Below are positions 8,036-55,941 of a DNA stretch of 64,000 nt, piece by piece (position 1 is the first letter of the stretch; each line of letters begins with the position of its first letter). The notes beneath the pieces were generated by a model that made no database searches, was not told the origin of the DNA, and saw only the letters and a program-made list of their open reading frames with translations. Source of the stretch: a virus; IMG/VR virus record IMGVR_UViG_3300035698_017305, positions 1 through 64,000 of that record; one strand, 5' to 3'. The position numbers were made by a program, and so were the translations under genes.

Positions 8036-8377
8036 CTACTTTTTCATAGCGGTAAGGTCTTTCTTATCCTGTGTTCCGGGCCAGTCGTTTTTGTAGTCAG
8101 GGTTGCTAATGATACGTAGTAAGTGTTGGCGGGTGACTTCTGTTTCCACATTCTCGTAGTCGCAAGAGATTTCACACAGTATGGGCTGACCTGATTCCTC
8201 CAGGAGTAGGACCCCCAGGAACATGTAAGCAGCCAGTAACGCGTCTTCTTCCTCAGAGCCTAGTACATCAACCATGACTTCTTTTAGGTGCCTACTCAGC
8301 CCCTCGATGGTATTTTGATCTTGAGCAGATGTGTCTTCCGGTTGTTTGAAATCAGATAGCTTTACAATATCTCCCAT
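8036..8377 (-). CDS. Hypothetical acidic protein
   Basis: Start re-placed at MGDIVKL after SD GGAGG; TAG stop. Confidence 0.65.
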   Translation of the reverse strand: MGDIVKLSDFKQPEDTSAQDQNTIEGLSRHLKEVMVDVLGSEEEDALLAAYMFLGVLLLEESGQPILCEISCDYENVETEVTRQHLLRIISNPDYKNDWPGTQDKKDLTAMKK

Positions 8378-16106: not shown

Positions 16107-16991
16107 CTAATCGAACCTATCTCTCCTACGCATCTTCTTCTTCAACTGGGCCATGTGGTCCTCCAGTCTCTTCTCAGCTTCTTTGACCCTATCCTCAGCA
16201 TCTTTGAGCCTAGCCGTCTTAGCGTCTATTCTCTGAAACTCAGGCATGGGCATGGGCGCTCTGGGTAAACCATATCCTCTTCGGCTGCTGACGGGGGGTT
16301 CTATGACATTTTGGAGTTCGGAGTGTATACATGGGTTTCCAATTACCGCCCACAACGCCTTACCTTCAGTCTCCCATCTCCCCTTTTGCTTGTCCGCAAA
16401 CTCTCTCAGGGACTCTGGGGACTCAACGGAGTAGTTGTCAAACCGGTAGAAGTAACGCCACTTCCAGTGGTCGCCTTCCATATAGTATTCCCCAAACCCA
16501 AAGGTCTTGATCCGGCCCCAGTACTTCTTGCTGATGATGTTCCGGGCTATGTCAGCCTCTGGTCTTCCAAACTCAGGCTTAACCAGCATGCCGGTGTGTA
16601 TAGCTCCGATATATCCACCCTTTGTTTTGTACACACATGCTATGTGAGCACCAGCACCACTGTCTAATGGAGTGTGAAAGGAGACTCGGAACAGGCACTT
16701 GTCTTTGTATAACTTGGGTGTGAGGTAATACTTGAACCATATCGCTGCATCCTCACAGTCACCACCTCTGTCCTGATCCGTTTCTTCCACTGTTTTGGGG
16801 TAGCCTCTCCCCACTTCATCAAACTGGTATTCCAGGATTAGGTGCCAGTATAGGAATAGTGTCCAGTCTGTCCCTCTCGTCTCCGCACTGAAAAAGTTAC
16901 AGTATACCCACTCGTAAACCCAGGATATGGGTGATCGCACCACATACCAGATCTTCAGTAGGTATTCCATTTGGTTTCTGTTTAGGGTCAT
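16107..16991 (-). CDS. Transglutaminase-like cysteine-peptidase-fold protein
   Basis: GGDCEDAA plus downstream HIACVY; ATGA overlap with upstream gene. Confidence 0.55.
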   Translation of the reverse strand: MTLNRNQMEYLLKIWYVVRSPISWVYEWVYCNFFSAETRGTDWTLFLYWHLILEYQFDEVGRGYPKTVEETDQDRGGDCEDAAIWFKYYLTPKLYKDKCLFRVSFHTPLDSGAGAHIACVYKTKGGYIGAIHTGMLVKPEFGRPEADIARNIISKKYWGRIKTFGFGEYYMEGDHWKWRYFYRFDNYSVESPESLREFADKQKGRWETEGKALWAVIGNPCIHSELQNVIEPPVSSRRGYGLPRAPMPMPEFQRIDAKTARLKDAEDRVKEAEKRLEDHMAQLKKKMRRRDRFD

Positions 16992-17578: not shown

Positions 17579-17808
17579 TACCAAGTACTCGATCTAAGCT
17601 GGATCGGTGGGGTTGCATGGACCGTCCATTTAGGTAGAGTGTCCTCGTTACCGTTGGTCAACTCGGCTACCAGATCAGAGGAAGGCCGCCTCCATGGGCC
17701 CCTGGATAACTTATACTGTGCCCATACCCACATTTTAATGAATAGGTTATCCGGCAGCCTTATGTATTCTATCAAGGATTTACGGGGATGATTGCGAATG
17801 AGTATCAT
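17578..17808 (-). CDS. Small hypothetical protein
   Basis: 76 aa; SD AGGAG. Confidence 0.55.
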   Translation of the reverse strand: MILIRNHPRKSLIEYIRLPDNLFIKMWVWAQYKLSRGPWRRPSSDLVAELTNGNEDTLPKWTVHATPPIQLRSSTW

Positions 17809-17831: not shown

Positions 17832-17906
17832 TGCCCGTGGAGGGATTTGAACCCCCGACACAGAGTACTAGAAGCTCCTGCTCTAACCAGACTGAGCTAC
17901 ACAGGC
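17832..17906 (-). tRNA. tRNA with CUA anticodon (amber suppressor-type)
   Basis: GCCTGTG/CACGGGC acceptor, canonical D and T arms, 5-nt variable loop; loop TT-CTA-GT at 32-38; C31.A39 mismatch. Confidence 0.75.
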
Positions 17907-17909
17907 TTA

Positions 17910-18033
17910 TGGCGGCGGGAGGAATTGAACCTCCAACCTTCCTAGTCCGTCCAGTGTTCCCAAATCAACAGCATTTGACTACGTGTTGTTTGAAGGACGC
18001 CAAGGATGCATCTACCAATTGAGCTACACCGCC
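17910..18033 (-). ncRNA. tRNA-like RNA with anticodon loop replaced by a long hairpin
   Basis: GGCGGTG/CGCCGCC acceptor, D arm, T arm GGAGG-TTCAATT-CCTCC; TCCT/AGGA stem extended by CGTCC/GGACG and CAAACAACA/TGTTGATTTG. Confidence 0.7.
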
Positions 18034-18082
18034 TTAGTGGGGATGAGGCTGTCACCTCCCACCCCCCTCTAGTTCAAAGTCC

Positions 18083-18388
18083 TTATAATAGCTTCAGCGA
18101 TCCCACTGCGTCAGCCATATCTCCGGATGGGGGTCCCATGAATGTGTAAGCTGTGGCTTCATTGCCTATGTCCGGCTCCACAAATATAGCCCCGTCTGGG
18201 ATTGATTCCACAAAGTCTTTCAACTCCGATTCGTCCTGGACCTTTAACAACACCATAGTGCTGTCCCAGTCAGCTAACTATCCAGGGGCTGCGTCAGCAA
18301 CGTATTCTGCTACTGAGTGGCAGGCTTGAACAGCTTGTTGGGATTTGCTTAAATCAGCTCTGACTAATGTGTACAGTCGCTTCTTCAT
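18083..18388 (-). CDS. Pth2-like peptidyl-tRNA hydrolase fold protein with in-frame TAG at codon 37 (not in ORF track)
   Basis: MKKRLYTLVRADLSKSQQAVQACHSVAEY...PG*LADWDSTMVLLKVQDESEL...FVEPDIGNEATA...LKLL; SD GGAGG; 306 nt; TAG at 18278-18280. Confidence 0.75.
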
Positions 18389-18695
18389 CGCTTTCCTCCA
18401 TAGCTGGCTTTGGGATCCTGTAGTCCCCCGATTCGTGTCCCACTTCAGTCACAAAGTCCTGAGCGTATTCGCGTACATCTACACCGAAATGCTTCTCAAT
18501 GAAGTACAGCACAGATCTCTTTGTCGGTTGGTTATGTTCACGATTCTTTTGTTCAATCATACGTAGGGACCGGCCTTTGAGTAAACAATAGGCGATATGA
18601 TTAAATCTCAGGGTTTCTGAGCTAGCAGTGTCCTTCAGATCTTTCTGAAGTTGCTTCAGGTGGGCCATCTTTTCTAGGAACTCTTGTCGTTGCAC
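18354..18695 (-). CDS. Hypothetical phage protein
   Basis: 113 aa; overlaps start of Pth2-like gene. Confidence 0.7.
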   Translation of the reverse strand: MQRQEFLEKMAHLKQLQKDLKDTASSETLRFNHIAYCLLKGRSLRMIEQKNREHNQPTKRSVLYFIEKHFGVDVREYAQDFVTEVGHESGDYRIPKPAMEESDEEATVHISQS

Positions 18696-18772
18696 CTACG
18701 TCATGATCCTGTCCTTTCAGTTACAGGTTATGGTGTATACATGAATGTAACCATCCATGTTCGTGTGTTAAG

Positions 18773-18846
18773 TCGGGGCGAGAGGATTCGAACCTCCGAC
18801 ATCATGCTCCCAAAGCATGCGCGCTACCGGACTGCGCCACGCCCCG
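18773..18846 (-). tRNA. trnP: tRNA-Pro(TGG)
   Basis: CGGGGCG acceptor; CATGC-TTTGGGA-GCATG. Confidence 0.95.
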
Positions 18847-19339: not shown

Positions 19340-20527
19340 TTATGGCGAACCTACGAATGGAAATCCACTAGTTAATCTGCGGGTGTCTGCATTAAGTACC
19401 CATTGCCTACCTGCCTTTGCCGAGTTAGTCCAGTTGGCATCGCCAGCCTTCTTAACCTTAACGACGTCAGATGTCCCACCACACAGCTCTATATAGCTGC
19501 CAGTTAGCACAGCATCCTTCTTAGGGTCTAAGGCTTTGTGTCCGTAGAATGCGGCAGTCTTCTCAGCATTGAACCCAGATGATAGCATGATGCCTTTATG
19601 TCCACATCTATCCCGGGCTAGTGTACCTTGTACCGCGTGGTATGCCTCCATGCTCACGCCTCTACCATGCTCCCACTTGTCCATCTCCGTGACTAGAACC
19701 TTCTCCTTACCCATAGGAATAGGTACACACCCTTCACAGTACCGTTCACCCGCCGTATCCAACCGGACTCCCCACCACATAGGGTTATCCTTGAACGCGT
19801 CACATGCCTGCCGGGTGGCCTGTAGCTCTTTGCCCTCATAATCTAGCAGGACTACAAACGGAGTACGCGGGTGGGTCTTGTTGAACATGTATGCACTATC
19901 CACTGACGCTAACTCAGCTACACGGTATTCCCGTTCAGATGCTACGCTAACCAAGGTGTTGAGTGCGTGGGGGATAGTACCTACTGGGTTCTTGTCCATA
20001 CCATCGAACGCGTATACTGCACCCTCCATAGTAGAGGTACCGCTGGCTCCTCCTATAGAAGCTGCTCTAACTATATAGGGCCATAACTCTGGCGGGTAGT
20101 GCCGAGCTGATGCATCATATACTGGGGCACCATGGGCAGCAATCCATATGTCGTGCATGTTTAATGCTGTTTTGCACATAGTAAGGGTGGACAGAATCCA
20201 GGTTTCCCATGGGATCAAGTCTACAGCCTTGCCCTCAAACAGGAGCACTATCTCTTTGGCCTCGAAGATCCTACCCTCTTGCAGATACTTGACCCGGGTT
20301 GCCCCCGCTCTTTCAAGCCCGGCAAGAACCCTGTCCATACCAGATATCATTCCAGGTTTACGGAAAAAGGTACGGTATTGTACCTGAGTGTTTATATCTA
20401 TCCCGCTACTAAGGTTCCTGATGACCTCTACTGATCGGGGGAAGTAGATATCTGAATATCTCTTTATAGCAACGTGGTTTGGAATTAACACATCTACCTC
20501 CAAAGTTGAGGGGGCTGCACTACACAA
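19340..20527 (-). CDS. pncB: Nicotinate phosphoribosyltransferase-like (type II PRTase)
   Basis: DASARH, GTIPHAL, LLDY, GVRLDT, SSGFN motifs. Confidence 0.75.
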   Translation of the reverse strand: MCSAAPSTLEVDVLIPNHVAIKRYSDIYFPRSVEVIRNLSSGIDINTQVQYRTFFRKPGMISGMDRVLAGLERAGATRVKYLQEGRIFEAKEIVLLFEGKAVDLIPWETWILSTLTMCKTALNMHDIWIAAHGAPVYDASARHYPPELWPYIVRAASIGGASGTSTMEGAVYAFDGMDKNPVGTIPHALNTLVSVASEREYRVAELASVDSAYMFNKTHPRTPFVVLLDYEGKELQATRQACDAFKDNPMWWGVRLDTAGERYCEGCVPIPMGKEKVLVTEMDKWEHGRGVSMEAYHAVQGTLARDRCGHKGIMLSSGFNAEKTAAFYGHKALDPKKDAVLTGSYIELCGGTSDVVKVKKAGDANWTNSAKAGRQWVLNADTRRLTSGFPFVGSP

Positions 20528-31686: not shown

Positions 31687-32040
31687 TGGTGGAGGTGGCG
31701 GGAATCGAACCCGCGTCCGCGAACACTTACCGTGCTCATCTACGTGTGTGTCCAACCTTTCTATCCTGAAAGACATGGTTGGCAACGCTTTCAGGACCCC
31801 ACTGCCTTACCCGTGTGGGGAACACCGGGACGGGTTTTGTCAGCTATTACCCGATACTGACAACCGGGGAGTCTAAGGTGACGTTCTAGCCTACAGCGAC
31901 TCTCCGTAGGTAGACCGCGCTACTCTCTAAGCAGCGATGGGAAGTTGATTTTCGGCAACTATCTAGGTTTGTTCTGTAACGTAGAACATCCGACACGCAA
32001 AGCACGACTCAATTATTCCCGTCGAATCCAGGTCACCCCC
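31687..32040 (-). ncRNA. ssrA: tmRNA, tag (A)AENQLPIAA
   Basis: GGGGGTG..GGATTCGACGG 5' end; CACCTCC-A-CCA 3' end with G3.U70; ATAGTT resume context then GCC GAA AAT CAA CTT CCC ATC GCT GCT TAG. Confidence 0.95.
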
Positions 32041-32520: not shown

Positions 32521-33576
32521 TTATGCGGTAGTAAAGATCTGCTGAATCCTCTCATCTTCCCAGTATACTTTGGGTGGTTCCTTGCCAACCCACGGTGGGG
32601 GCAACTTTTCAAGATGAGAATGTCCTAGCAGAGCTTCATCATAAGGTCTGTCAAAGTCTAGACCTTCTAAGGCTCTCCATACAGGGAACAAATCCCGTAG
32701 GAATTGCTTGACCATGTAGCGTAGAGCCATGTTGTGCATGTGCCCCTTCCAACCCTTCTCATCCTTACGGGCGAGCAGGTCCTCCCTATGGGCAAGCCTG
32801 TAACGGTATTGATCATAGATTTGTCTGTAGCGTTTGTGACCACACTTAATCAGGTTAGCGGACATCACCCCGATCAACTTAGTTTTGAGCGTAGGGTTGA
32901 AGGTGATAGCCTTCTTTGTCTTCGTCTCACCCGCCGCATTAAGGTACTCCACATCAACCAAGTGCTCTGCTCTACGACTCCTGCCTAGCCCGTCCTTTGC
33001 AACGTCTAGACCTGCATACTTCCACAGACTGGATACGTGCCGTGCTTTGTGGATGTCAAACTCGGCGACTATGATACCACCCATGGCGGGGCCAATACCA
33101 CTGATACGTTCCAAGTATTCATTCCAGATAGGAAACTCTTCCAGCCCCATCCTGATAAGGCTTAGTTGTTCCCTTTCAACCCGTTCCAGCGCGACGTAGT
33201 GTTCCACTAGTTTGAGGGTGGCATAGTCTCCTATAACCCCGTCCCCTTCAAACTTGTGTGGTCTGATCCGTACAACGCCGTCTGTGATTCTCTTGTACGA
33301 CAGCTTCAGTGTCTTGAGGGTAGACTTGGCTTCCCCGCTGAGCTCATCCTTTTCAGCCTTCCCTGGGATCTTTCCGTTCTTGACCTTCCAGCTCTCTACC
33401 ACTCGGTTCCCCAGACCTATCCGTGTTTTCTGGATGTCCAGGTTCCCTCTGACCTGTGCTCTGAACCTCATTCGAGGTCCATCTGGGTCCACCACTGGGT
33501 CTGGAGGAGGAGCTTTTGCCTTCGGTTTGACCTTCGGTTTGACCTTGGATACCCTGGATTCTGCTGCTTCTCCCAT
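32521..33576 (-). CDS. IS110/IS116-like (Nop-related) protein lacking a RuvC-like DEDD domain
   Basis: FPIWNEYLERISGIGPAMGG..VAEF...SSLWKYAGL...A.R...K.FL; N-terminus is Pro/Lys low complexity. Confidence 0.7.
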   Translation of the reverse strand: MGEAAESRVSKVKPKVKPKAKAPPPDPVVDPDGPRMRFRAQVRGNLDIQKTRIGLGNRVVESWKVKNGKIPGKAEKDELSGEAKSTLKTLKLSYKRITDGVVRIRPHKFEGDGVIGDYATLKLVEHYVALERVEREQLSLIRMGLEEFPIWNEYLERISGIGPAMGGIIVAEFDIHKARHVSSLWKYAGLDVAKDGLGRSRRAEHLVDVEYLNAAGETKTKKAITFNPTLKTKLIGVMSANLIKCGHKRYRQIYDQYRYRLAHREDLLARKDEKGWKGHMHNMALRYMVKQFLRDLFPVWRALEGLDFDRPYDEALLGHSHLEKLPPPWVGKEPPKVYWEDERIQQIFTTA

Positions 33577-33585
33577 AAGTTCCTC

Positions 33586-34239
33586 CTACAAGGTGGTCAT
33601 AGTGGCGAAGTCCATACGCGTCACCTTGTTGAATGTTCCACCGTTGATGTGCTGTTTGATAACGCCTGTGATAATACACGCGATACCAAATGCTGTATAG
33701 ATGATTGCTCTTTCCGTGCACGGTGCAGGAGTAGCCTCACTACTGGGATAGAGATTCTTTTCGTACATCTCTATGTCATCTGGATCGGTGGGGTCCACAG
33801 CGTACACCTCAGCATACTCTGCTCCCATGCGGGCTTCGATGAATAGGGGGATGTTGAAGTTGGACTTGCAGGCATTCCATATCTTGATACGGGTATCCAT
33901 TGAGTCAACTGCTACCACCACGGTACCTTCCAACTTTTGACTGGTGTACCACATAGGTTTGGTAGTGAGGGACGTGTCATGGAAGCACTTGACGATTTCG
34001 TTCATCGCCACCACCTTCATCTTACCCAGGTCTTCCTTCCGGAACATTTGGTTGGGGAGGTTGTGTGCTTCCACCTTATCGTTATCCCATACCGTCACCT
34101 TGCTTACACCCATCTTAGTGAGGGCAAACGTGGTGGGTGAACCTATTCCACCGACTCCGATGATGTGGACTTCGTAGTCTTTGATGGCGTCGGCACGGAG
34201 AATTCCGCTTTGACGGCAATAGATATCGCTTGCGAGCAT
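33586..34239 (-). CDS. ThiF/E1-like activating enzyme (set 1)
   Basis: IGVGGIGS, WDNDKVEAHNLPNQ, AVDSMDTR, ARMG, CTER. Confidence 0.9.
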   Translation of the reverse strand: MLASDIYCRQSGILRADAIKDYEVHIIGVGGIGSPTTFALTKMGVSKVTVWDNDKVEAHNLPNQMFRKEDLGKMKVVAMNEIVKCFHDTSLTTKPMWYTSQKLEGTVVVAVDSMDTRIKIWNACKSNFNIPLFIEARMGAEYAEVYAVDPTDPDDIEMYEKNLYPSSEATPAPCTERAIIYTAFGIACIITGVIKQHINGGTFNKVTRMDFATMTTL

Positions 34240-35230: not shown

Positions 35231-37648
35231 CTACTCCTGGTCTTCTTCTTCTTCTGGTTCTTGCTCTCTCAACGCTTCTACCAACTCGTCTCCAATGGCG
35301 TCCAACATGGCTGCCGAGACAGTCCCTGCGTCTATGACAGCGGGTACCGGTGGTATTCTGAGTGTTGCCTCATTCAGTACTCTATGTACGGCCTGTATCG
35401 CCGCATCCCTAGCTGGGGTTTCCTCAGTCATAATTGACGGTGATATAACTATAGGCTCAAGTGCCTCACCTTCTGCGTCCAGGGCGGCTTGGAAACTATC
35501 CCTCATACCCTGTAACTCTGGGGAACCTTGTGCTAGCTCTACTATGCTTGGGTCTATCTCCAACACATCCTCAAGGGACTCCCCACTGCAACGGTCTACT
35601 TGCTCAACCGCAGAATCAACCTCAGCTATGTAATTCATAACTTCTTGGGCTCCTGGACTGTCCAGTGGGCCATACGGTACCGGTTCCTCATCTGCCATGT
35701 CCTCATCCCCAATGATCATCTCGTCTACAACCCTAGCAAACTCCCGGTCTTCCTCACTACGAATTTCAGTTGTTACACTAATCTCGTAAGGTTCAGCTCT
35801 CCCATATGACCAAGGCACAGTTGTTGAATCGTGGGCTGGAGGCATAGTCGGACTAGCGGCATCTACATGTCTCTGTGGAGCCCTGGGTGCTGCCACAAAC
35901 CCATACTGATTAAACCCATCACCACTGTCAGGTTGCCCCTCAACTACTTCAACTCCTACCTGCGGCGGTTCCACAGCGGCCTCAGATGCAGTTGAGTGTG
36001 CACATCTCGGGGATATGGTGCACCGAGCACAAGCTTGGGACCTATTTACCCTGTCGTAACAGAACTGTTGAGCAGCGACAATGGGGTAGTAGGGGCAGCC
36101 CGCTTGGTGGCATTCGGTACCCGATGAAGAAGATCCACTCACACGTCGTCTCTGTAAACAACTAATAGGTCCGGTCTCACCAATCTGTTGACCGTTTTGA
36201 CACGCGGTAATGCTCCGGTCTGTCCCTTCAGTGCAGTCATCCCTACTAGAACAAGTAGCACACTGAGACCAGTCACCTTCTTCTTCTAGATACTCAGCGC
36301 ACCTAGTGTAGCCAGAGTCGAAGTGGGGGCAATTCTCATCATCACAGACAGCGCAATCATGGTAACCGCTGTTTTCCCAACAACTATCCCGTCTGTTATC
36401 ATCGTCCTCATCTTCGTCATAGTCCTCATCATCACTGCCCCCATCACTGCCCCAGTTAGCAACCCTGACGTAGGAATCGTTGTCATTAGCATGGCGGAGG
36501 TAATCAGCTATTAGAGCCAATGCTGCCGCATACTCCTTGGTCTCTATCAGGTTCATTAACTGGTTGTCAATATTACCTAGGCAAGGGATACCAGAGTCAG
36601 AAATGTGCGGGTGACCAGAGCTCCGCCTGAACTTGGTGTCGTCCTGTTGATTTATCTTGAGGGCCCCAGTCCTGTCGTTGAGGGTTACCTCAAACCACCC
36701 CACGTCATACTTTACCCCATCATTCTCTCCAACGATGATGACCCTGGGGGTTGTGGCTACTATGTTGTCCTCTGATACCCTGATCTCTCTGTACACGTTG
36801 GGGATGAGTTTACACATAGCACCAAACTGGCCATCAAACTGAGACTTTTCCGAATCTTCAAAGTAGAGGTTGATGGACTTCATCTCTACCCTCTTCTTAT
36901 CACGCTCTCTACCCAGGACTAGGGCTTTTTGTCTCAGCTCCCTAATCTCGTGTCCAGCGGTGGTAATCTCCAGGTGAATGGCTGCAACCCTCTCCGATAC
37001 TGTCTTTCTACGCGTCCTGATGAAGTCCTCTTTGAGCTGTGTTGGGTCCCACACATGGTCTAACTCCTTGGTCAGCATCACCTCAATAGCCGCCCAAAGC
37101 CAGTTTACAGGGGCTTCTACGTCCGTACTGGACATATTTCGGAAACTTAGGGGTAAGAAGATATGACTACCCCCGTAAGAGAATCCGAAAAGTCCCGCCT
37201 CTTCTACTGGCGGGATTAGCTCAAAGGGTGTGCCTTCGTTTACATGCAAGGCTGTGTTGTATGGGCTTGAAATGACTCGTACCCCAGCCCCCAGGATTCT
37301 CCTTTTGGTCGCGTTTAGATCAGAGTAGAACTTAGCGTAATCAAATACTTTCGTTTTGACCTCAATGATCTTGTCCTTGACCTCGGTCCTGAACGTCTTC
37401 ATATCTCCTGACGTGTTGGATTGTACATATAGATGTAGTCCACGCCTCAGTACCATGTACCCTTCCGGATCTCGGTTGGTATACCCTTCAATCGGGTGAT
37501 CCCCAGCTAGTAACCGGGATAGTGGCTGTTGTAAGTCACATTCCGTATAGATGATTGGGATCCCCTTACTTGAGGAGAAGAACTCTAGTTGAGCCTTTAG
37601 TGCTGGGGGTGGTGCCGTTGTTGTGTTTTGTATCTCCGCTGTCGGCAT
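35231..37648 (-). CDS. Large protein with prokaryotic E2-like domain and Cys-rich region
   Basis: HPHISDSGIPCLG followed by helical YAAALAL..YL; many CxxC C-terminal to it; start re-placed at MPTAE. Confidence 0.75.
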   Translation of the reverse strand: MPTAEIQNTTTAPPPALKAQLEFFSSSKGIPIIYTECDLQQPLSRLLAGDHPIEGYTNRDPEGYMVLRRGLHLYVQSNTSGDMKTFRTEVKDKIIEVKTKVFDYAKFYSDLNATKRRILGAGVRVISSPYNTALHVNEGTPFELIPPVEEAGLFGFSYGGSHIFLPLSFRNMSSTDVEAPVNWLWAAIEVMLTKELDHVWDPTQLKEDFIRTRRKTVSERVAAIHLEITTAGHEIRELRQKALVLGRERDKKRVEMKSINLYFEDSEKSQFDGQFGAMCKLIPNVYREIRVSEDNIVATTPRVIIVGENDGVKYDVGWFEVTLNDRTGALKINQQDDTKFRRSSGHPHISDSGIPCLGNIDNQLMNLIETKEYAAALALIADYLRHANDNDSYVRVANWGSDGGSDDEDYDEDEDDDNRRDSCWENSGYHDCAVCDDENCPHFDSGYTRCAEYLEEEGDWSQCATCSSRDDCTEGTDRSITACQNGQQIGETGPISCLQRRRVSGSSSSGTECHQAGCPYYPIVAAQQFCYDRVNRSQACARCTISPRCAHSTASEAAVEPPQVGVEVVEGQPDSGDGFNQYGFVAAPRAPQRHVDAASPTMPPAHDSTTVPWSYGRAEPYEISVTTEIRSEEDREFARVVDEMIIGDEDMADEEPVPYGPLDSPGAQEVMNYIAEVDSAVEQVDRCSGESLEDVLEIDPSIVELAQGSPELQGMRDSFQAALDAEGEALEPIVISPSIMTEETPARDAAIQAVHRVLNEATLRIPPVPAVIDAGTVSAAMLDAIGDELVEALREQEPEEEEDQE

Positions 37649-52334: not shown

Positions 52335-52464
52335 CGGCTAGCTAGTCGAGAGACCCATATTAGGTACACCGAGGTGGAATTGAACCACCGACTTTTTGCT
52401 TAATAGGCAAATGCTCTATCCAACTGAGCTATTGGTATGTATGGCCTAACTGTAGGGCTAACCG
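52335..52464 (-). ncRNA. Y-RNA-like unit 5: unpermuted Asn-like cloverleaf (ATT) inside scaffold
   Basis: ATACCAA/TCGGTGT-ACCT; GCTC-AGTTGGATA-GAGC; TTTGC-CTATTAA-GCAAA; GGTGG-TTCAATT-CCACC. Confidence 0.85.
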
Positions 52465-55151: not shown

Positions 55152-55941
55152 GGGACCGACGATCCAAGATCTACTTGAGGCGACCAAAGGAAAGAGCGCC
55201 CCGCGTGGAGGAGCAGGTGCAGAGGATGGAGTTAAGAGGATAGTTAATCGTCCGGCTAAGGGGGGCGGATCCAAAATTGACCCTGAGGCGGCCATGGCTA
55301 TGCTGGAGGGCATGATTCAAAAGCAGGAAGGCTCACCTAGCATGTCGGAAGATGCATTGGAACAGCATCTAGATGAACAGCAGCACGTCCCAGAACCGGT
55401 AGCGGCAGTAGAACCGCAGGAGACTAACCCAACTGATGATCTCCAAATGGAGATGCTGGCGGAAGAGGAAGCTTTCGCAGAAGTCTCAGAGCATATTACA
55501 GCCCTTGTTTCAGACTATAGAAGGGAGGCCATCGAGAAGCGGTGCACCCCACTAGACGTGGAACAGCTCATTGTAAACGGTGAAGTGAGGCAAAGGGTCA
55601 TCGTGGTACCGGGTAAGTTCGAACCCACCTTCAGATCAAACAGCACCAGAGAAGACATGTTCATCAAAGAAGTGATGTTCGGAGTTACTGGGTCAGCCCA
55701 ATACATCCGGGACAAGTTCGCTTTGATGCAACTGACCCTCGGGGTTGTGGCAATTAACAACCAACCATTACCGTCTCACCTGGATGGGTCAGGTAGGCCG
55801 ACTAAGGATCTGTTCTGGGCTAAGTACGAAAAGACCCTGGACCTTCCTGCTACTCTCATTGCGGACTTGGCTGTCAACCACACATGGTTTAGCCAGCGAG
55901 CCCAAGGTCTGACAATATTCGACGAAGTAAAAAATGGTTAA
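55138..55941 (+). CDS. Hypothetical phage protein (possibly assembly-related)
   Basis: 267 aa; coupled to next gene. Confidence 0.7.
   Translation: MAENEGPTIQDLLEATKGKSAPRGGAGAEDGVKRIVNRPAKGGGSKIDPEAAMAMLEGMIQKQEGSPSMSEDALEQHLDEQQHVPEPVAAVEPQETNPTDDLQMEMLAEEEAFAEVSEHITALVSDYRREAIEKRCTPLDVEQLIVNGEVRQRVIVVPGKFEPTFRSNSTREDMFIKEVMFGVTGSAQYIRDKFALMQLTLGVVAINNQPLPSHLDGSGRPTKDLFWAKYEKTLDLPATLIADLAVNHTWFSQRAQGLTIFDEVKNG

Follow-up and report, generated by a model that had tools for sequence, protein, structure and literature searches.

The stretch of DNA analysed here (the window) comprises positions 1 to 64,000 of one contig of 132,813 bp from a salt-lake metagenome (IMG/VR record IMGVR_UViG_3300035698_017305). 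The contig is phage-like, encoding 16 tRNA genes and a transfer-messenger RNA (tmRNA) as well as proteins that match PHROG families. On its minus strand, a gene for a protein related to the Pth2 family of peptidyl-tRNA hydrolases carries an in-frame TAG at codon 37, and is preceded by a small upstream gene and followed by a tRNA with the anticodon CUA, hereafter tRNA(CUA). These three elements, all on one strand, appear to constitute a module that is widespread in phages. The features of the locus are as follows (ORF, open reading frame; aa, amino acids).

18846..18772, minus strand: tRNA-Pro, first in gene order at the locus
18354..18704, minus strand: upstream gene (upORF), starting at 18704 or 18695, approximately 104-116 aa
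18696..18704, minus strand: candidate gate ATG-ACG-TAG of the upstream gene, with TAG at 18698..18696, then G
18083..18388, minus strand: Pth2-like gene, with 101 sense codons when the TAG counts as one (PF01981, phrog_1866, fold)
18280..18278, minus strand: in-frame TAG, codon 37 of the Pth2-like gene, in the context GGA-TAG-T
17910..18033, minus strand: tRNA-like element (Rfam tRNA, 39.9 bits) with a 61-nt insert
17832..17906, minus strand: tRNA(CUA) (ARAGORN; Rfam, 56.5 bits)
between tRNA(CUA) and the HD-domain gene: doubtful ORF of 76 aa
16988..17584, minus strand: HD-domain phosphohydrolase gene (Pfam HD_4, 5e-8; phrog_990, 5e-37)

The Pth2-like gene and tRNA(CUA)

The Pth2-like gene extends over 306 nt from ATG at 18388 to a TAA stop at 18085..18083, and GGAGG is situated 6 nt ahead of its start codon. 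An earlier note, made from the letters of this DNA alone, had proposed that a frame of this length with a good Shine-Dalgarno (SD) sequence yields a Pth2 fold only when the TAG is read, and that the TAG falls between conserved blocks; both proposals are borne out. The read-through product (101 aa) can be aligned over its full length with homologues that have no internal stop (91-111 aa), and codon 37 is located in a variable linker just N-terminal of a conserved Trp (W41). An AlphaFold (AF2) model of the read-through protein, based on a 76-sequence alignment, has a mean predicted local distance difference test score (pLDDT) of 95.1 and a predicted template modelling score (pTM) of 0.86; in this model, codon 37 lies in the loop that joins helix 15-32 to strand 41-50, and residues 1-36 provide a core strand and helix of the fold. 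The top 13 Foldseek matches are all Pth2 chains (probability 1.00, template modelling score 0.57-0.76). As modelled, the read-through product is one compact Pth2-fold domain, which neither half could form alone.

Sequence profiles give a graded picture of the same relationship: the window protein scores 19.5 bits against Pfam PF01981 (E 1.2e-3), under the gathering cut-off of 23, and matches phrog_1866 in PHROG at 7.5e-10, and the profile of the family matches the Pth2 structure 2zv3 at E 2.4e-6. Before and after the TAG alike, every residue that is invariant in the family is intact, and no frameshift interrupts the gene. Q21, H24, D73, and T79 are kept, with Q21 and H24 invariant across the family; D73, in the motif E-P-D-I-G, probably corresponds to the D-A-G aspartate of Pth2, at a point where the alignment is uncertain. 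Logan contigs over the locus were available from three salt-lake sequencing runs, namely X1 (2019, possibly identical to the source sample), X2, and X3 (both 2017). Contigs of all three span the TAG with zero differences, and those of two also span tRNA(CUA). An error in a single assembly therefore cannot account for the TAG, which answers that concern in the earlier note. None of the runs listed for the locus is registered as RNA.

The tRNA(CUA) starts 177 nt downstream of the Pth2-like gene and is a type I cloverleaf with U33, the anticodon C34-U35-A36, a G1-C72 pair, and A73 (ARAGORN, the full Rfam model, and stems read by hand), together with G18-G19 in the D loop, a 5-nt variable loop, and the T-loop UUCAAAU. 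The label tRNA-Pyl was rejected: ARAGORN names any CUA-anticodon tRNA ‘Pyl’, and the features of a pyrrolysine tRNA, namely a small D loop, a short variable loop, and a long anticodon stem, are absent; no search for pyl genes was made. Its closest relative is the CUA tRNA of locus L031 (79% identity), with tRNAs of its own genome reaching no more than 72%. The distance of about 180 nt given in the earlier note is accurate; the intervening DNA, however, is not empty and holds the tRNA-like element. This element has good acceptor, D, and T arms, and a hairpin of approximately 50-60 nt replaces the anticodon loop; no convincing anticodon was found for it, the intron mode of ARAGORN offering only a poor Asn(GUU) model. 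A contig of run X3 matches its D arm (19 nt) and its variable/T-arm region (22 nt), and the 19 nt between these matches would fold as a normal anticodon arm of Val(UAC) type; this contig may come from a related phage.

Conservation of the linkage and of in-frame TAG codons

Two sets of relatives were compared: 80 IMG/VR loci with a homologue (viral set; 28-47% identity to the window protein) and a second 80 loci from metagenomes (metagenome set), giving 160 homologues. A tRNA(CUA) is present in 72 of the 80 viral loci (once called with the four-base anticodon CUAA), in 71 of them on the strand of the gene; it lies no more than 100 nt downstream in 25 loci and no more than 1.1 kb downstream in 30 others (55 in total). 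It is often the sole tRNA within 12 kb, and the next commonest anticodon occurs in 14 viral loci. The same tRNA was identified in 42 of the 53 metagenome loci that have at least 700 nt downstream, and in six of eight loci from metagenome-assembled genomes (MAGs). At or near the usual site of the CUA tRNA, L042 (6307-6382), L055, L066, and L068 have tRNAs called as Phe(AAA) or with four-base anticodons, these being UAAA in L055 and CUAA in L065; such tRNAs may be mis-registered, or may be variant stop-reading tRNAs.

Internal in-frame stops occur in 14/80 viral and 30/80 metagenome homologues, and all 44 are TAG, with no TAA or TGA. The co-occurrence of the TAG with a CUA tRNA, proposed as a check in the earlier note, is complete among the viral loci with an internal TAG (14/14); it extends to 18 of the 30 TAG-bearing metagenome loci, many of which are on short contigs. 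The residue at codon 37, the subject of another such check, falls in a variable loop, and many distant relatives have their TAG in this same loop between helix 1 and strand 2, where the internal TAGs cluster and where those of the metagenome set are most frequent. In L003 and L021, the TAG is exactly four residues ahead of the Trp, as in the window, and in the L031 group it directly follows the same Pro-Gly; the relatives that share the position are only 41-46% identical. A further approximately 27 of the 80 viral homologues start ATG-NNN-TAG, without a usable start after the TAG. The Pth2-like genes end in TAA or TGA, TAG being the terminal stop in only five of 157 complete genes (3/160 run off the contig). 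A purine directly follows the gating TAG in every early case listed and in 36 of the 43 internal ones. A purine at this position favours suppression over termination. Under code 11, the related loci have a normal coding density. A profile search returned 2,292 cluster representatives (50% identity) at E ≤1e-10, some of which may be canonical Pth2, and the family is nearly absent from cellular genomes (eight MAG contigs among ~186,000 species).

The gene immediately upstream encodes a protein whose family motif is R-x-x-H-I-A-Y-C-L-L-R-G-R-x-x-E-Q-I-E, or in a looser form R-x-x-H-I-A-Y-C-L-L-(R/K)-G-R-x-x-x-x-I-E. Homologues of this protein are encoded directly ahead of the Pth2-like gene in at least 24/80 viral loci; L023, L047/48, L066, and L072 have the two as a fusion. 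No family was found for this protein in Pfam or PHROG, nor an informative neighbour in the Atlas; its model is all-helical (pLDDT 73) and has no fold match. In the window, the upstream frame opens with ATG(18704)-ACG-TAG(18698..18696)-GTG, with AAAGGA 7 nt before ATG 18704, and the segment homologous to the N-termini of relatives starts at ATG 18668, which lacks an SD sequence. The string ATG-ACG-TAG-GTN also opens Pth2-like genes or leaders in relatives. From this comparison, TAG 18698..18696 is probably a second amber gate, which would control the upstream gene; the RNA around it shows no significant structure (z -1.17).

Many relatives have, approximately 350 nt upstream of the Pth2-like gene, a leader of the form M-x-UAG-...-Pro-Pro-stop (27 and 15 loci), and none of the loci has the same leader with TAA or TGA at codon 3. 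Upstream of the module, ATG-NNN-TAG is threefold enriched (1.13/kb vs. a background of 0.35/kb) and ATG-NNN-TAA is not. The Pro-Pro-stop leader is absent from the window, where MT-UAG-VQRQEFLEK continues in frame into the upstream gene.

Two cultured jumbo phages, Xanthomonas phage XacN1 (AP018399.1; ORF364) and Stenotrophomonas phage RAS14 (OP752703.1), have ATG-AAG-TAG-ACC in frame with their homologues (L171 940-963 and L172 940-1017, respectively), in both cases upstream of the annotated start. The annotation of RAS14 is truncated, since conserved N-terminal sequence precedes its GTG start, between this and the TAG. In both phages, the Pth2-like domain is joined to a longer N-terminal domain, which matches HD weakly and in RAS14 only (E 0.011), H...HD-like motifs being discernible by eye in XacN1, and is not similar in sequence to the HD protein of the window. 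The XacN1 homologue passes the PF01981 cut-off, at 25.3 bits. These starts, like the candidate gate on the upstream gene, the tRNA-like element, and the breadth of the module, are additions to the earlier note.

TAG in the rest of the genome

Elsewhere in the genome, TAG is an ordinary stop. It ends ORFs at 8036, 57209, 59290, and 62022, the four sites named in the earlier note, and 31 of 153 greedy ORFs across the 132.8-kb genome; coding coverage is 0.863 under code 11 vs. 0.886 with TAG open, and opening TGA or TAA has a comparable effect. With the related loci also at standard density, the absence of global recoding stated in the earlier note is confirmed: the genome uses the standard code and does not classify as code 15.

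Other in-frame TAGs were sought in two ways, by coding potential on both sides of a TAG and by ATG-NNN-TAG before long ORFs. Neither way gave another credible in-frame TAG in this genome, and two sites are ambiguous. Among the rejected candidates, ATG-GTT-TAG at 55884 is inside the preceding gene, the real start being a TAATG overlap; ATG-ATT-TAG at 84121 (minus strand) overlaps a large gene in antisense; and MR*DISPPG* at 73528, the one match in the genome to the Pro-Pro-stop pattern, is inside a gene of 1043 aa. The in-frame TAG junctions at 16107-16109, 33586-33588, 36286-36288 (minus strand), and 76490 (plus strand), each with a short spacer to the next gene, are ordinary stops followed by an SD sequence and a start codon; read-through at these four would fuse neighbouring proteins, and such junctions are no more frequent than those with TAA.

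The first of two further sites lies outside the window: ATG-ATT-TAG at genome positions 123873-123881 (L081 374-382) occurs 11 codons before the SD-led start of a gene for a 2058-aa protein, which read-through would extend at its N-terminus; this may be chance. The second is in the frame of the HD-domain gene, where ATG 17629 is followed 11 codons on by TAG-A (17596..17594), six codons before ATG 17578; codon usage at 17594-17632 (minus strand) prefers the HD frame to the overlapping 76-aa ORF. This TAG could be a third gate or chance, and the HD-domain gene, which lies downstream of tRNA(CUA), is possibly linked to the module.

Several further features of the contig were recorded. The tmRNA is at 31687-32040 (minus strand; Rfam, 126 bits), encodes the tag peptide AENQLPIAA, and adjoins a tRNA-Glu; a tmRNA near the module is also found in the relative loci L011, L040, and L170. 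A tRNA called as Asn with the unusual anticodon AUU is present at 52363-52438 (minus strand; Rfam, 60.8 bits). The tRNA-rich region also includes a nicotinate/quinolinate phosphoribosyltransferase-like gene at 19340-20527 (minus strand; QRPTase_N, 1.2e-8) and a transposase-like gene at 32521-33576 (minus strand; phrog_4285, 9e-31).

Interpretation and comparison with known systems

The window contains a gene of the HIAYCLLRGR type, a Pth2-like gene, a tRNA(CUA) on the same strand, and UAG codons within the genes, which is the composition of the proposed suppressor-gated operon. Our preferred interpretation, to which we assign a probability of roughly 60% from sequence comparison, is that this is a UAG-gated module, in which the upstream and Pth2-like proteins would be made only as tRNA(CUA) reads UAG. 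Ribosomes would halt at codon 3 of the upstream gene and at codon 37 of the Pth2-like gene unless tRNA(CUA) is produced, receives an amino acid from a host synthetase, and prevails over release factor 1. The amounts of both proteins would scale with the activity of tRNA(CUA), with TAG serving as an ordinary stop in the rest of the genome. Beyond the observed anatomy, fold, linkage, TAG-only in-frame stops, and standard code elsewhere, we infer that tRNA(CUA) becomes aminoacylated and acts as a suppressor, and that expression is limited by read-through. The local suppression switch proposed in the earlier note gains support from the comparison of relatives (linkage, and in-frame stops that are exclusively TAG); the hydrolase-like activity proposed alongside it is the weaker half, since the lysine of the canonical Pth2 motif GKGK is replaced.

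Several observations weigh against gated expression of the window copy. The base after the codon-37 TAG is T, a good context for termination, shared by only seven of 43 relatives. The anticodon loop of the window tRNA(CUA) is UUCUAGU (G37, U38), and the C31.A39 mismatch flagged in the earlier note is real; the arm therefore lacks the context of efficient suppressors (A37, A38, paired 31-39) and departs from the C/UUCUAAA loop that is the norm in 102/119 other module tRNAs, with G37 recurring in 5/51 tRNAs of the metagenome set. In suppressor anticodon arms, G37, U38, and C31.A39 are expected to weaken suppression. Strong suppression would come at a cost, since approximately 20% of the phage’s own genes end in TAG. 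Translation of the upstream gene could begin, ungated, at GTG 18695 or ATG 18668. The second Lys of the GKGK motif of 2zv3, which we take to be a catalytic residue, aligns to Gln17 (HMMER), with Tyr there in some relatives, and hydrolase activity is therefore not assured; the catalytic residues of Sulfolobus solfataricus Pth2 are reportedly Lys18 and Asp86. Finally, no relative closer than 54% identity was found in viral, metagenome, or genome collections (P0001 is a 57-aa fragment, and P0002 a 46%-identical sequence), and at this distance selection on the window copy, as the ratio of nonsynonymous to synonymous substitutions (dN/dS), is not measurable.

Some of these same points would be expected from decay, in which a dispensable gene has acquired the codon-37 TAG by nonsense mutation, the tRNA arm is degenerating, and no full-length product is made. 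The outlier loop UUCUAGU with C31.A39, the strong stop context TAG-T, the disrupted appearance of the adjacent tRNA-like element, and the want of close relatives by which to gauge selection are all consistent with it. We nevertheless consider decay improbable, given that the TAG occupies the same loop position in relatives only 41-46% identical, that 44/44 internal stops in the family are TAG, that invariant residues are intact on both sides of the TAG with no frameshifts, that the sequence is identical in the 2017 and 2019 samples, and that G37 recurs in other module tRNAs. On these grounds, we read the window copy as a weaker or tighter gate, not as decay.

A somewhat less probable alternative is that tRNA(CUA) does not work as a suppressor but serves the Pth2-like and upstream proteins as substrate, decoy, or cofactor, perhaps in a defence or counter-defence system that targets tRNA, with the UAGs throttling expression through low host read-through. 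This would account for linkage to one tRNA as opposed to tRNA clusters generally, and accords with the tRNA-ester hydrolase fold of the Pth2-like protein and with the fusion of its domain to the upstream protein or to an N-terminal domain (weakly HD in RAS14, by eye in XacN1). However, the module tRNAs other than that of the window retain an amber-suppressor loop (U33, CUA, A37, A38) in 102 of 119 cases and have normal cloverleaves, as would suit ribosomal decoding, and the stops of the module are exclusively TAG, matching the anticodon. Neutral recoding, in which TAG sense codons drift in without a regulatory role once a suppressor is present, is about equally unlikely: TAG-recoded phages that carry suppressor tRNAs are well known, and acquisition of a suppressor has been suggested as a route to recoding (bioRxiv 10.1101/2021.08.26.457843), but no other credible in-frame TAG was found in this genome, related loci are at standard-code density, and the TAGs concentrate in the module (at codon 3, in one loop, with a purine next, and in Pro-Pro-stop leaders), which argues for selection for TAGs and not mere tolerance.

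The exclusive linkage to tRNA(CUA), the fusions to the upstream protein, and the N-terminal fusions of XacN1 and RAS14 suggest action on tRNA 3' ends, and we propose, with low confidence, that the Pth2-like and upstream proteins act on the acyl or peptidyl ester at this position. Either the suppressor tRNA or the read-through products would serve as substrate, and the UAGs would couple the dose of the enzyme to the activity of the suppressor, as a feedback. A more specific and rather doubtful version is a homeostat, in which the upstream protein directs the Pth2-like protein to remove acyl or peptidyl groups from tRNA(CUA); because synthesis of the Pth2-like protein would itself require tRNA(CUA) to read UAG, suppressor activity would be held at a set level. 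Such a homeostat would permit calibrated UAG read-through (for timing, or for extended isoforms) without poisoning TAG-terminated genes.

Suppressor tRNAs of standard-code phages had no known target, and the module offers a specific and conserved one, namely the adjacent genes. If gating holds, the module would be a natural and portable translational switch operated by a tRNA and a probable intermediate toward full stop-codon recoding, and would give a Pth2-fold enzyme a part in controlling read-through. Cultured phages with the same arrangement make the question directly testable.

XacN1 is one such case, being a cultured, standard-code jumbo phage with tRNA(CUA) genes and a homologue of the window protein whose frame opens with ATG-AAG-TAG; it differs in that its tRNA(CUA) genes lie at a distance from the homologue, within the terminal repeats, and its Pth2-like domain is fused to a longer N-terminal domain. 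Two CUA tRNAs were reported for XacN1 with no identifiable target, in an analysis that covered only sequence beyond terminal amber stops (PMC5852040). PTH2 has been noted in jumbo phages, with no mention of a link to suppressor tRNAs (PMC7824862). Across the literature on recoded-phage suppressors, jumbo-phage PTH2, and XacN1, we found no description of linkage between a CUA tRNA and a Pth2-like gene, or of gated genes.

As a protein, the window product shares with Pth2 (PF01981; MJ0051, 2zv3; human PTRH2, 1q7s) the fold and the motifs R-x-D-L, V/A-Q-x-x-H-A, and T-A, but is shorter (approximately 100 aa), has Gln17 in place of the GKGK lysine, and has a motif of its own, F-x-E-P-D-I-G. The Pro-Pro-stop leaders upstream of the operon in relatives resemble the leaders at which ribosomes stall (RAPP/RGPP-type, SecM, ErmCL), with the difference that the stall site in the relatives would be reachable only by reading UAG at codon 3. 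The release factor 2 (RF2) gene prfB likewise has an in-frame stop in the mRNA of a translation factor that reports on termination or decoding activity; RF2, however, uses UGA and a +1 frameshift and senses its own protein, whereas the window module would sense the adjacent tRNA, any feedback by the Pth2-like protein being hypothetical.

A further parallel is with code-15 phages (TAG = Gln; crAss-like, Lak, and others), in which a phage tRNA(CUA) reads in-frame TAG in a standard-code host. For TAG-recoded phages with suppressor tRNAs, a path from suppressor acquisition to recoding has been proposed, as has a role for recoding in delaying or conditioning expression (bioRxiv 10.1101/2021.08.26.457843). 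By contrast, the window genome uses the standard code and has in-frame TAGs only in the operon beside the tRNA, and its putatively gated genes encode a Pth2-like and a small protein rather than structural or lysis proteins. The decoding of in-frame stops by phage suppressor tRNAs is known; what would be new is its confinement to one self-referential operon in standard-code phages.

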